Virus record (IMG/VR): IMGVR_UViG_2648501437_000030
Direction: 5' to 3' (one strand)
From: a virus
Taxonomy: Duplodnaviria > Heunggongvirae > Uroviricota > Caudoviricetes
Length of the DNA: 35,867 bases
Of this stretch, positions 30,597 to 35,867 are shown piece by piece. The position numbers were made by a program, and so were the translations under genes. The notes under the pieces were generated by a model. It did not search any database and had not been told where the DNA came from. It saw only the letters and a program-made list of their open reading frames with translations. The number at the start of each line of letters is the position of its first letter. The first letter of the stretch is position 1.

Positions 30597-31127
30597 ATGG
30601 AACTCAGAAACGTCACGCGTTATTACCCGGAAGAGATGCCTTATGGTGAAAACATTCAGTATTTCCGCAGTGAAGACGGACAGGATTTTTATGAATCACT
30701 GGATAAATTCACGAAGAAATACAAATTGTGTATTCACCCGGAAACCGGCGTGATTTATTCAATGGCAGAAGACGTGTCCCGTCTTTATCCTGTTGGTTTT
30801 ACCATTGTGGAAGTGGATGAACTGCCGGAGGGTTTTGGCATCGAAGCCAGCTGGTATTACCGGGATGGCGAAGTACTGCCAGTTCCTGTTGATTATTCGA
30901 AACTGGCAGAAAAGCAACGTCAGCGCTTGCTGAATGAAGCAAAGGAAATCACTTCCGACTGGAAAACCGAGCTGGAGCTTGGCACCATCAGTGATGACGA
31001 CAAGGCCCGTCTTACGCAGTGGATGGAATATATCAAAGCGGTAAAGGCGCTGGATTTAAGCACCGTTACTGACGAAGCCTCCTTTAATGCCATCAACTGG
31101 CCGGAGCGTCCCGATGCCGCAGCTTAA
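30597..31127 (+). CDS. Tail fibre assembly protein (Mu U / Tfa-like)
   Basis: 176 aa from ATG 30597 (RBS AAGGAG); Tfa-type organisation. Confidence 0.75.
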   Translation: MELRNVTRYYPEEMPYGENIQYFRSEDGQDFYESLDKFTKKYKLCIHPETGVIYSMAEDVSRLYPVGFTIVEVDELPEGFGIEASWYYRDGEVLPVPVDYSKLAEKQRQRLLNEAKEITSDWKTELELGTISDDDKARLTQWMEYIKAVKALDLSTVTDEASFNAINWPERPDAAA

Positions 31128-33711
31128 AGGTGTGATTAAAACGCCCACGGGAGAACCGCTGGGCGGCGCAACCATTACACTGACCTCCCTGCACAACCGT
31201 GCAGGGATTCTGAAAGGTGTTTTCAGTCACGTCACCACACAGAATGGGGAATATAACTTCCCCGTTCTGCCGGGCGTGTACAGCGTTCGCCTGACGCAGA
31301 GTGTACAGCGCCTTTCAGAAATCGGTGTCATCCGCGTTTATGAAGATTCAGCGGATGGTTCGCTGAATGATTTTCTGGGCGCAACCGATATTGACCTGCG
31401 CCCGGAATCCCTGAAGAAATACGAGGAACTGGCACAGCAGGCGCAGCAGAGCGCGGAAGCCGCAGCAGAAAGCGAGCAGCAGGCAGGGCAACATGCAGAC
31501 GCTGCCGCCCGGGAAAAAGAAGAGGTAAAAAACCTGGCGGAAGGTGTTCAGCAGAACGCCGACGCGGTTGCGGAGGGTAAACAACAGGTCGAAACTCTGG
31601 CCTCAGAAGTTGGGCAGAATGCCGCCGCGGCAGCCATGAGTGCTCAGGAGGCGAAAGACGCAGCCGGGCATGTGCAGGGATTCATTCATGACCACCTTTC
31701 AGTATCAACCCGTTATTCGGTAACAGAGGCGAACCGTCAGCTACAGGCGTTGAGGATAAACAGCGGGCGCTACGAGGGGCTGTGGCGCTACCTGAATGCG
31801 AACGGTGGTATCAACTGGTATTTTCTGTTTCTTGCCGTGTATGAAAGTGAAGGAAAATGCTTTTCCCTCAGTGACCGTATGACAATTTGCGAAAAGGCGT
31901 TAAGACTGGGGCTTGTGGTTCCGTTTATGACAGGTTGCCGTTATGAAGCCGGGCAGCGCCTGACAATAGACGGCACGCTCTTTTTTGTTAATATCGCGGG
32001 CACCACCGGGGAAACGTTGCCTGATATCACCTCTGTAGCCCCCGGAGATTTTGTCCGGACTGGCTCCGCTGTGCTGGAGTGCCTGAAAAGCCCCTCAAAC
32101 CGAATCCCGGCTGCATGGCAGTATTTTTTTCTGGATGTGGCTCCGGATTTGTATACCCCCGTTGCGCCGGACTCCACGGACAGCTACCCGGCGCTCTGGT
32201 TCGCCTGCATTGCTGAATTTGCGGACAGTGCCTGGTTACAGGAGCCAGCCGGAATCGGCGGGTCCAGCCGCTGGGAAATCATAAAACAGGTGGCAAAGTT
32301 CAATATCGTTGCTGAAATAAATCCGGTGGCCAGTCTGGTAAACGTATTCCAGCACAATCTTGCACCCGGTGACCGGGCTTATGCACAGTGTTTTTGTCAG
32401 GATAACGCAGAGGTTTATGCTGGTTTACGTGCACTGAAAACACTGGCTGACCTTGCCGGAGATACCACTGCTGCAACTGAATATACCGCTGCCATGAAAA
32501 CCATCAGGGCTGGCCTGCTTGCGTTGTTTGTACCTGAACAAAAACGGTTCCTGACGTATTACAACGAGACGGATTACCCGGCAGAGCCTGGTGAAGGGCG
32601 TTTTGTTGATAAGGACCGTTTTTCTGTGGCCCCGTGGCGCTTTGGGGTGCTGGAAACACAGGAAGAAGTGGAACGGTACGGCAGGCAGGTTCTGGACGCC
32701 ATACAGAGTGCTTACCCGGACCTGTTCACGGCAAATTACGACGGCATTGATACGTTTGCCATGAGTGATTTTTTTGCTTTTGTGGCAAAGGTTACCACTT
32801 CTCAGACGGCAGCCACGGCTGCCATCAGACGCCTGCAAATCCGGGCGACATCTGCCGTCACGGTGGCCGACGTTGCCGCCGCCATATCCGTTACAGCCTG
32901 GGGAAAAATCCCACAGTTTCGTGCCTGTGATTTTATGCGCATCAACGGGCATTCCGTGCTCGGAGGGGGCGATATCACGCTGGGCGCGGCGACCACAATG
33001 GAGCCACAGAGTGATATTCGCGACAGGACGGAAGGCAGGCTGGCACTTCCCGATGCCTTCGGTTTTGGGCGTATATTCAACACAAACGAAACTGTCCGCT
33101 TTGACTCAGAAAATGATTTTCTGGTGTGGGTAAAACAGGTCACGCCAGGAGAATATTTTGTTGAGGGTGGCAATAAAATTATACCCAATGTGCTGTTCAG
33201 CGGGATTGTCAGTATTCGGTGGATTGAGTCCAGATATGCCACACCGAGTCCGATAAATACAGCAAAGGCGATTATTTTCTATGGTGTTAATGGCCACATT
33301 TATTACAACCGCTACTGGACCACAGGAAATGGTTATCTCATTGACTGGGAATCACTGAAGGTAACCTCGCAGGACATTATTGCTCTTCTGTCCGGCCTTG
33401 CTCCCGGAACTACAGATACCTGGTACGGCACTGGCAGCCTGATACTGGCGGCATATAACGGCCAGGGAAACGCAGACCCGGACCGCAGAATAAAGCGAGG
33501 TTACAGCTATCCTGGGTCACGTCTGAGTGCGGTTGAATTGATGTGTTACGGTACGACCGGGACCGGGGTTAAATACAACGGCAGTGTTTCTGTGTATGTT
33601 CAGGGTTCCGGTGGCGGAATGCCAGGCACATACCGGGCATTGTCGGGGAATGGACTGGGGTCTGCCGGTTCCGCCAGCGTCATGATTGGTCTGTTTATAC
33701 GAGTTGCGTAG
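31114..33711 (+). CDS. Lambda-Stf-like side tail fibre/tailspike with large central domain of unknown (possibly enzymatic) function
   Basis: 866 aa from ATG 31114; N-terminal domain (...VYSVRLTQ...IRVYEDSADGSLNDFLGA) matches lambda Stf family N-termini, then Ala/Gln/Glu-rich coiled coil, about 500 aa globular region, Gly-rich C-terminus. Confidence 0.75.
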   Translation: MPQLKGVIKTPTGEPLGGATITLTSLHNRAGILKGVFSHVTTQNGEYNFPVLPGVYSVRLTQSVQRLSEIGVIRVYEDSADGSLNDFLGATDIDLRPESLKKYEELAQQAQQSAEAAAESEQQAGQHADAAAREKEEVKNLAEGVQQNADAVAEGKQQVETLASEVGQNAAAAAMSAQEAKDAAGHVQGFIHDHLSVSTRYSVTEANRQLQALRINSGRYEGLWRYLNANGGINWYFLFLAVYESEGKCFSLSDRMTICEKALRLGLVVPFMTGCRYEAGQRLTIDGTLFFVNIAGTTGETLPDITSVAPGDFVRTGSAVLECLKSPSNRIPAAWQYFFLDVAPDLYTPVAPDSTDSYPALWFACIAEFADSAWLQEPAGIGGSSRWEIIKQVAKFNIVAEINPVASLVNVFQHNLAPGDRAYAQCFCQDNAEVYAGLRALKTLADLAGDTTAATEYTAAMKTIRAGLLALFVPEQKRFLTYYNETDYPAEPGEGRFVDKDRFSVAPWRFGVLETQEEVERYGRQVLDAIQSAYPDLFTANYDGIDTFAMSDFFAFVAKVTTSQTAATAAIRRLQIRATSAVTVADVAAAISVTAWGKIPQFRACDFMRINGHSVLGGGDITLGAATTMEPQSDIRDRTEGRLALPDAFGFGRIFNTNETVRFDSENDFLVWVKQVTPGEYFVEGGNKIIPNVLFSGIVSIRWIESRYATPSPINTAKAIIFYGVNGHIYYNRYWTTGNGYLIDWESLKVTSQDIIALLSGLAPGTTDTWYGTGSLILAAYNGQGNADPDRRIKRGYSYPGSRLSAVELMCYGTTGTGVKYNGSVSVYVQGSGGGMPGTYRALSGNGLGSAGSASVMIGLFIRVA

Positions 33712-33718
33712 GTGATTT

Positions 33719-34285
33719 ATGGAAGTAAAAAAAATCGAAAATGCGCGCTGGCTGGAAAGCGGCGCGATTGACTGCGACGTATTGTTTGAGGGGATGGACG
33801 AGGCCCTGCCGTATACAGCGACAGCAGACGATACCGCACCGACGGGCCAGCAAATCTGGCAGGAACTGCAAAGTGGCAAATGGGGTGAAATCGCCCCGTT
33901 TACAGTCACGCCTGAACTTATCGCAGCGGCAAAAGATGCCAAAAAGATGGAAATCGAGGCGTGGCGCACAGAACAGGAGGCACTGCCGTTCACGTTCGAA
34001 TGGAATGGCCGCACCTGGAATGCTGGCCCCGACTCAATGGCCCGTCTTTATCCGGTAGTAATGGCGGCGAAATCCGATACGGCACGAACCACCCTTGCGT
34101 GGGGTGATGCCGATAATCAACAGGTGAAACTGTCAATGCCGGAACTGGAAGAACTGGCGACAGCAATGGCGCAGGCACAGGTCGATCGCAATGACGAGAT
34201 TTATCAGCGCCAGCGTGAAATGAAGGAGCAGCTTTCCCGGCTGTCCATACTGGACGAGGTGAGAGCGTTATCGGTGATTAAATAA
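33719..34285 (+). CDS. Tail fibre assembly chaperone-like protein (DUF4376-type)
   Basis: 188 aa immediately downstream of the Stf-like gene; FEWNGRTWNAGPDSMARL motif typical of fibre-adjacent chaperone-like proteins. Confidence 0.6.
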   Translation: MEVKKIENARWLESGAIDCDVLFEGMDEALPYTATADDTAPTGQQIWQELQSGKWGEIAPFTVTPELIAAAKDAKKMEIEAWRTEQEALPFTFEWNGRTWNAGPDSMARLYPVVMAAKSDTARTTLAWGDADNQQVKLSMPELEELATAMAQAQVDRNDEIYQRQREMKEQLSRLSILDEVRALSVIK

Positions 34286-34303
34286 TCAGTTTGTATAGTT
34301 TAT

Positions 34304-34331
34304 GACGATCGATAACATCATATCGATCGTC
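34304..34331. promoter_or_regulatory. Perfect 11-bp inverted repeat with two GATC sites upstream of com/mom
   Basis: GACGATCGATA-acatca-TATCGATCGTC, GATC at 34307..34310 and 34325..34328, about 75 bp upstream of the com start. Confidence 0.45.
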
Positions 34332-34404
34332 GGTTTGCATCAGTTGTGATTAAATACCCCCAGCCCTCCGGGCGGTCATGTCTGGTTATTACACAGGGGG
34401 AATC

Positions 34405-34590
34405 ATGGACTCTGTTCGCTGTAAAAACTGCAATAAATTACTGTTTAAAGGAGGTTTTAAGCATATAGAAATTAAATGCCCTCGCTGTAAACGTTACATT
34501 GTCATATCGAATGCCAAAGAGCATCCCACGGAGCTGTATTGTGGGAAAAGAGAAGAAATCACGCATTCTGACAAAACCCTGCGTTATTGA
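34405..34590 (+). CDS. com: Com zinc-finger translational activator of mom
   Basis: 61 aa from ATG 34405 (RBS AGGGGG); ...[26 protein letters not shown]... near-identical to Mu Com as recalled. Confidence 0.85.
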
Positions 34591-35245
34591 GTATGAAGGC
34601 CGGATTGTCGGCTATGGTTCAAGGGAGTTGCGCGTTGAAACCATATCCTGTTGGCTGGCCCGCACAATCATTCAGACAAAACACTATTCCCGCCGTTTTG
34701 TGAATAACTCCTACCTGCATCTGGGCGTATTCAGCGGACGTGATCTGGTTGGCGTTCTTCAGTGGGGATATGCCCTTAACCCCAACTCAGGGCGTCGTGT
34801 TGTGCTGGAAACGGATAACCGGAGCTATATGGAACTGAACCGCATGTGGTTACACGACGACATGCCCCGCAACTCTGAATCACGGGCCATCAGCTACGCG
34901 CTAAAAACCATCAGACTACTGTATCCGTCAGTGGAGTGGGTTCAGTCTTTTGCCGACGAACGCTGCGGACGCGCTGGTGTGGTATATCAGGCGTCGAATT
35001 TTGATTTTATTGGCAGCCATGAAAGCACGTTCTACGAGCTGGATGGTGAGTGGTATCACGAGATAACGATGAACGCGATTAAGCGTGGAGGGCAACGAGG
35101 CGTGTATTTGCGGGCTAATAAGGAGCGGGCCGTGGTACACAAATTTAATCAGTATCGCTACATCAGGTTCCTGAATAAGCGCGCAAAAAAGCGACTAAAC
35201 ACTAAGCTATTCAGGATTCAGCCATACCCCAAAAACACATCTTGA
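34511..35245 (+). CDS. mom: Mom DNA-modification enzyme (adenine N6 carbamoylmethyl-type modification); start codon uncertain
   Basis: ORF open from 34499 (TTG); in-frame ATG 34511 and GTG 34541; overlaps the 3-prime end of com; sequence closely matches Mu Mom as recalled. Confidence 0.85.
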
Positions 35246-35363: not shown

Positions 35364-35867
35364 ATGATGCGCAAAGCTCTCAAGATGGTCCTTATTACTA
35401 CAGCGATAATCTCACCAATAGCGCAGGCACAATGGCTAACCCAAACCGAAGATGACTTGTTTTCTGATGGTAAAAAGGCAGCGATGATTGGTGAAACGTC
35501 ATCTGACAATAGTGCGATCATTTTCAATTGTACAAAAAATACTCTTACCGCTGCATACGTGGAGATGGACAAAACACACGAATCAACAGCCAAAATGCCA
35601 ATGGAGTTGGTGATGAAAGTTGATGGAAATAACGCACTCAAATTTAACGCAACGCTTTCAAGAAGGAACGTGCAAGCTCTCGAAATTGCAACTAATGATG
35701 CTGAACAACTCAAAATTCTTCTCAAACAACTGAAGGAAGCCAAATCTCAAGTATTGGTTGGCGCGCAAACAGAAGATGGCGGCAGCAAATTTTCCCTTTC
35801 TGCTAATGTGTCCGGCTCAACTTCTGCTGTTAATAAGTTTGTAGCGGCATGTGAAATAAAATTGTAA
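35364..35867 (+). CDS. Exported protein of unknown function (cleavable signal peptide), cargo gene downstream of mom
   Basis: 167 aa, RBS AGGAAA; signal-like N-terminus MMRKALKMVLITTAIISPIAQAQ; two Cys in mature part; lower GC than phage core; stop at the last base of the window. Confidence 0.6.
   Translation: MMRKALKMVLITTAIISPIAQAQWLTQTEDDLFSDGKKAAMIGETSSDNSAIIFNCTKNTLTAAYVEMDKTHESTAKMPMELVMKVDGNNALKFNATLSRRNVQALEIATNDAEQLKILLKQLKEAKSQVLVGAQTEDGGSKFSLSANVSGSTSAVNKFVAACEIKL

Follow-up and report, generated by a model that had tools for sequence, protein, structure and literature searches.

A Mu-type com-mom operon in an Escherichia coli prophage, with mom predicted to start at a hairpin-masked GTG codon

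The question at this locus is which of several in-frame codons starts mom, where its reading frame overlaps the preceding gene com, and whether the codon used lies within an RNA structure of the kind described for phage Mu. The DNA analysed here, hereafter the window, is the whole 35,867-nt stretch of IMG/VR record IMGVR_UViG_2648501437_000030 (Caudoviricetes). Judged from its sequence, region 34405-35245 is the com-mom operon of a Mu-like E. coli prophage. The segment 34280-35867 matches a prophage at 100% identity in five complete E. coli genomes (RM11911, RM13745, RM13752, XJ34, and XJ6-3), whose prophages show no substantive difference from the window, and related copies of this segment were found in 97 of 5,426 genomes. 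The RM11911 prophage is inserted in gspE and interrupts that gene. Compared with Mu, D108, and SfMu, the left part of the window is 89-93% identical to the transposase and early regions, and the com-mom segment is 88-89% identical. The same com allele and hairpin loops are also present in many other genomes and viral contigs (the IMG/VR loci L009, L012, and L014 among them). The features of the right end are as follows.

31087-33711: tail-fibre reading frame of 874 aa, upstream of com.
33719-34285: DUF4376 reading frame, tail-fibre-assembly-like, upstream of com.
34300-34404, plus strand: Pmom-like promoter and leader, assigned by homology from an alignment with Mu, D108, and PhiR68_1.
34405-34590, plus strand: com (ATG 34405, TGA 34588-34590), coding for a zinc-ribbon protein (CxxC...CxxC) of 61 aa, which by homology activates the translation of mom.
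34541-35245, plus strand: mom as placed here (GTG start, TGA 35243-35245), coding for 234 aa; by homology, an adenine-hypermodifying DNA modification enzyme.
35364-35867: reading frame of 167 aa with a signal-peptide-like N-terminus, between mom and the right end of the prophage, matching phrog_19473 (unknown function; 8e-66).

The flanks of the operon depart from the Mu arrangement. Unlike Mu and D108, the stretch 31087-34285 upstream of com holds neither a gin invertase gene nor an invertible G segment. The PGAP annotation of RM11911 covers only ~360 nt of the 5' part of the fibre gene, as a pseudogene, and leaves ~2.2 kb of this open frame unannotated. Downstream of mom, the gene differs from that of Mu, and the 167-aa reading frame bears no relation to gene 56, its positional counterpart in D108. 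Its stop codon is also the end of the window, ~190 nt before the gspE junction.

The identity of com is straightforward. A second in-frame ATG lies upstream at 34378, and the start at 34405 was preferred because of Mu homology and a GGGGGA Shine-Dalgarno sequence just before it; the PGAP coordinates of the com coding sequence agree with 34405-34590. Com matches Pfam PF10122 Zn_ribbon_Com (2.5e-7; 30.5 bits, cut-off 22.9) and phrog_13819 (4.3e-43). It is one residue shorter than Mu Com (gp54), with which it shares 45 of 62 aligned positions (73%), and C6, C9, C25, and C28 align with the four zinc-binding cysteines of the Mu protein. A sequence search of the PDB found no solved Com structure. 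The product name given by PGAP is ‘DNA-binding transcriptional regulator’; Com is an RNA-binding translational activator.

Upstream of com, two CGATCG sites (Dam GATC/PvuI) lie at 34306-34311 and 34324-34329. In Mu, Pmom is a C-dependent late promoter under Dam/OxyR control, with three clustered GATC sites and a C-binding site that overlaps the -35 element. The promoter-proximal region has ~11 nt fewer before com than that of Mu, and the Mu stretch TTATGCCCCAATAA, which we take to be the C-binding site, aligns with a diverged stretch, TTAAATACCCCCAG, in the window. The 18-bp spacing of the PvuI sites is that of Mu Pmom (PMC3378877), and the third GATC of Mu Pmom is absent here (CAGATCGATT in Mu, GCATCAGTTG in the window). 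A search of 34290-34405 found no sigma-70-like promoter, as expected for a promoter that depends on an activator. Two further loci, L028 and L035, have the same type of promoter as the window.

The mom frame overlaps com in the +1 frame and offers three start-type codons, TTG 34499-34501, ATG 34511-34513, and GTG 34541-34543, which would give overlaps of 92, 80, and 50 nt, respectively. A first-pass annotation of this DNA had named these codons as in frame and had noted the overlap with com (34405-34590); both hold when read from the sequence, as does its remark that a further ATG at 34593-34595 is out of the mom frame (94 nt from 34499, not a multiple of three). It had also described the frame as open from 34499. 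TTG 34499 is indeed the first start-type codon, but the frame itself is open from 34469, after TAG 34466-34468. Where the annotation had judged the start not fixable from sequence, homology to the Mu GUG, a Shine-Dalgarno scan, in-frame stops in relatives, and Mom N-termini all point to GTG 34541. We consider it very probable that mom occupies 34541-35245 (234 aa), which shortens its overlap with com to 50 nt from the 80-90 nt first proposed on the assumption of an upstream start.

GTG 34541 has a Shine-Dalgarno sequence, GGAG at 34530-34533, 7 nt on its 5' side, and neither of the other candidates has one. The scan gave a predicted duplex with the 3' end of 16S rRNA of -5.8 kcal/mol for GTG, +1.2 kcal/mol for ATG, and +0.9 kcal/mol for TTG. 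In the GenBank Mu record AF083977, mom runs from GTG 35907 with its ribosome-binding site GGAG at 35896-35899. DNA alignment places these column for column on window positions 34541 and 34530-34533, and the Mu ATG on 34511; the Mu GUG assignment that serves as our reference is itself based on a secondary statement and a database annotation. The PhiR68_1 record starts mom at the same GTG codon as AF083977.

The protein comparisons agree with this placement. Mom matches Pfam PF25680 (1.4e-75) and is identical to Mu Mom (gp55, as annotated in AF083977) at 224 of 231 positions (97%). Alignment to Mu Mom, a check that the first-pass annotation had proposed, places the N-terminus at GTG 34541. The crystallised Mom 8BV8 begins with M followed by VGKEKK and aligns from query residue 15, which is the GTG codon 34541, and the numbering in the Mom literature is that of a 231-aa protein. 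In the 8BV8 alignment the window Mom has serine opposite the alanine of the S124A crystal construct (S124A is named in PMC13219725), i.e., the catalytic-site serine is kept.

In Mu, Com binds a short hairpin with a six-residue loop through the motif 5'-CC(N)2-3GAG-3', and this target adjoins a translation inhibition structure that is destabilised by Com binding (PMC6483171). Counterparts of both are predicted at the mom start of the window.

34511-34524, plus strand: predicted Com-target hairpin (AUGC 34511-34514, loop CAAAGA 34515-34520, GCAU 34521-34524).
34525-34545, plus strand: predicted translation-inhibition hairpin (CCCAC 34525-34529, loop GGAGCUGUAUU 34530-34540 (N11), GUGGG 34541-34545).

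The first of these carries the motif as CC-AAA-GAG at 34514-34521, and its 5' arm includes the in-frame ATG 34511. The predicted target RNA is GAAUGCCAAAGAGCAUCCC. Folded alone, it has a free energy of -2.4 kcal/mol (z = -2.8). The second hairpin directly abuts the first, and its extended stem shares U34524 with it. The GUG start lies within its 3' arm and GGAG 34530-34533 at the 5' end of its loop. Folded alone, it reaches -7.7 kcal/mol (z = -2.3). In a 201-nt context, the GUG is predicted to be unpaired with a probability of 0.017. This rises to 0.31 when 34511-34528 is forced single-stranded, which is a crude stand-in for Com and no test of Com itself.

When 34480-34620 was folded, as the first-pass annotation had suggested, the inhibitory hairpin appeared in the minimum free energy (MFE) structure of this 141-nt fragment; the fragment as a whole folds no better than shuffled sequences (z = 0.06). 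The same MFE structure encloses the inhibitory hairpin in a long-range pairing of GAAUGC 34509-34514 with GCAUUC 34574-34579, which is also possible in Mu. We rejected this pairing as a conserved element; it is lost without compensation in three relatives (L004, L049, and L134), and we attribute the match between the two segments to conservation of a sequence that codes in two frames. Rfam gave no match at E <= 1 across 34250-34750, and there is thus no curated family for the Com switch element.

Beyond these predicted structures, the arrangement is that of Mu com-mom (AF083977 35768-36602): the gene order is the same, as are the +1-frame overlap and the GUG with GGAG 7 nt upstream. The stems of both hairpins are identical in the two elements (AUGC/GCAU and CCCAC/GUGGG), and both have CC-N3-GAG. 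The loops differ, with N3 of the Com hairpin reading AAA in the window and UGC in Mu, and the loop of the inhibitory hairpin reading GGAGCUGUAUU and GGAGAAACAUU, respectively. The earlier suggestion of a Mu-type operon with an RNA structure masking the mom start is supported by these features.

The free loop positions of the Com-binding motif, 34516-34518, make up one whole com codon, which is Lys38 here and Cys39 in Mu. Among close relatives this codon is UGC, AAA, CAG, CGG, UCA, ACA, UUC, or GUU, with more variants in distant ones, and the flanking codons are fixed. Thus, the variable loop of the target RNA codes for a residue that varies in Com, its binding protein.

Several records start mom elsewhere. 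The ATG 30 nt upstream of the GTG is the annotated start in RefSeq Mu NC_000929 (L215), in the D108 record (L002), and in PGAP annotations of E. coli (L007 and L008). The corresponding start at ATG 34511 would yield a 244-aa protein overlapping com by 80 nt. This codon is canonical and the first ATG in the open frame, and its equivalent is ATG or GTG in most close and enterobacterial relatives. That conservation has another source, since the same nucleotides serve as the 5' arm of the Com-target stem and also encode residues N-A of Com. At that place, moreover, the ATG would sit in a stem or under bound Com at the very time when mom has to be translated, and it lacks a Shine-Dalgarno sequence. 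In two relatives, a Scandinavium MAG (L004; MPLSIPR*RRVIVGKQKK, asterisks marking stops) and L134 (SIPRRN*TVGSEKK), a stop interrupts the mom frame after the ATG equivalent and before the GTG, so mom must start at the GTG equivalent in both. The ATG-equivalent triplet is ACG in the distant elements PAN70 (L054) and a Magnetospira MAG (L006), and the Mom N-termini that we set at GTG/ATG codons there line up with the GTG. GUG rather than ATG is also the start in the literature, in the updated GenBank Mu record, and in the crystal construct, and GTG 34541 is the sole candidate usable in all relatives compared. We regard a start at ATG 34511 as unlikely; the annotations that use this ATG (PGAP, RefSeq Mu, and the D108 record) probably begin mom 10 codons too far upstream.

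The comparative survey drew mom loci from GTDB genomes, IMG/VR, and phage records. Scanning genome contigs with a single Mom protein gave three loci, and scans of viral contigs gave the useful diversity. Among the 88 distinct regions upstream of mom, 79 contain a Com-like CxxC...CxxC reading frame, which in nearly every case runs into mom in a different frame. When the expected 170-nt stretch was searched for a paired 4-bp hairpin with CC-N2-3-GAG, 66 of the 79 Com-bearing loci had one. The same search returned 0 of 79 inside mom, 4 of 79 on the reverse complement, and a mean of 1.65 of 79 in shuffled sequences.

The stem of the Com hairpin covaries. The outer pair occurs as AU (16), GC (11), and GU (5), and the second pair as CG (10), UA (10), GC (6), AU (1), and wobble (2); controls in which the arms were slid collapse. 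The figure of 97.7% paired positions is partly circular, because the 32 sequences used for covariation were mostly picked for pairing, and the search result of 66/79 is the control free of this circularity. RNAalifold, run on 17 diverse relatives with no structure supplied, returned exactly the two adjacent hairpins. Thirteen loci of one family (L098) carry a C·A mismatch at the second stem pair (GCGC/GCAC), and one member, L116, restores the pairing (GUGC/GCAC).

The second stem varies only by G-U-compatible or length changes (CCCAU, CCCCAC/GUGGGG, CCAC/GUGG) and shows no double compensatory change, as two overlapping reading frames also constrain this segment. Several lineages that are further removed instead have a second hairpin that masks the Shine-Dalgarno sequence (CCUC-N5-GAGG), upstream of an ATG start. 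Our simple search missed a second hairpin in ~10 distant loci (L149 and L151 among them), where the inhibitory structure, if any, is of different geometry.

PAN70 and the Magnetospira MAG illustrate how far the architecture extends. As in the window, a Com zinc-ribbon reading frame overlaps mom in another frame, and directly after a hexaloop hairpin with CC-N3-GAG comes a second one, holding the start codon or the Shine-Dalgarno sequence. The pairs themselves differ. The first stem is ACGC/GCGU, a compensatory change, and the second hairpin is a shorter CCAC/GUGG or a CCUC-N5-GAGG with an ATG start; the C-terminal tails of these distant Com proteins are unrelated. The PAN70 zinc-ribbon reading frame (1013-1237) is unannotated and lies over the GTG start 1179 of a ‘putative DNA modification protein’; its hairpin, ACGC-CCGCGA-GCGU, is followed directly by CCAC-N14-GUGG.

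Some Mom homologues have neither a com gene nor a Com hairpin, and Com control is hence not universal in the Mom family. These include four IMG/VR loci that are 77-78% identical (L100, L102, L106, and L122), in which the mom ATG comes directly after a GATC-rich promoter-like region, and Aeromonas phage pAEv1818 (L053), in which mom follows the antiterminator Q gene. In one further locus (L048; IMG/VR 2713897198_000003), an A-run indel (GGGAAAACAAAAAAAAATCACG) ~40 nt downstream of the GTG equivalent shifts the com and mom frames relative to relatives, and points to a sequencing error or to a copy that is no longer active.

Taken together, the coordinates, the homology, the predicted structures, the covariation, and the exclusion of upstream starts favour a start at GTG 34541, with the GUG masked by a hairpin and relieved by Com, and we give this reading a probability of about 0.88. 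The hairpin CCCAC-N11-GUGGG (34525-34545) would keep mom off by holding the GUG in its stem and GGAG at the edge of its loop. The same transcript would yield Com, which would bind the adjacent 4-bp hexaloop hairpin at 34511-34524 through CC-AAA-GAG. Bound Com would then destabilise the inhibitory hairpin and expose the mom initiation site. For this prophage, Com binding, hairpin melting, and Com-dependent translation are inferred from the work on Mu.

In this lineage the mom frame remains open for a further 42 nt on the 5' side of the GTG (to TTG 34499), where that of Mu is closed by stops. This raises the idea of a minor, N-terminally extended Mom made from ATG 34511 or TTG 34499, which Com would block, or else of a Com/RNA pair with diverged specificity (loop AAA for UGC). 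Both are very unlikely, given that the upstream codons have no Shine-Dalgarno sequence and that the three loop positions are free in the published SELEX motif.

Another account retains GTG 34541 as the start but has it opened chiefly in cis, through translational coupling to ribosomes translating com, with Com binding secondary. Because the mom initiation site is 50 nt inside com, com-translating ribosomes must all melt the structures at 34511-34545, and nearly all 79 Com-bearing loci retain an overlap of the two genes in different frames. Against this account, Com can also act in trans. Mu Com reportedly binds RNA specifically, in work ascribed to Wulczyn and Kahmann (1987, 1991) and Hattman et al. 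(1987, 1991). Specific binding of Com to RNA in Mu is also summarised in PMC6483171. A conserved CC-N2-3-GAG hairpin whose stem covaries speaks for a site bound by a protein more than for coupling alone. Coupling in cis may contribute to the opening of mom, without explaining the covarying protein-binding hairpin, and as the chief mechanism it is very unlikely.

Least credible, to the point of being negligible, is a start at TTG 34499 (the longest reading frame, 248 aa, overlapping com by 92 nt): it is the first start-type codon past the upstream stop, but TTG is a weak initiator, no Shine-Dalgarno sequence precedes it, the equivalent stretch holds one stop in L004 and two in Mu (S*C*MPASIPRRNIVGKEKK, just before the ATG), which close the TTG region there, and none of the annotations or papers compared uses it.

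With mom placed at GTG 34541 behind a Com-responsive hairpin, the feature is ordinary, known biology that matches Mu com-mom in every respect that sequence can test, and the prophage module is textbook and already annotated in RefSeq genomes. The in-frame stops in two lineages provide comparative evidence for correcting the ATG-based annotation of mom. In addition, the predicted two-hairpin Com switch, with CC-N2-3-GAG kept and compensatory changes in the stem, recurs in no fewer than 66 distinct com-mom lineages, which include enterobacterial, Pseudomonas, and alphaproteobacterial elements.
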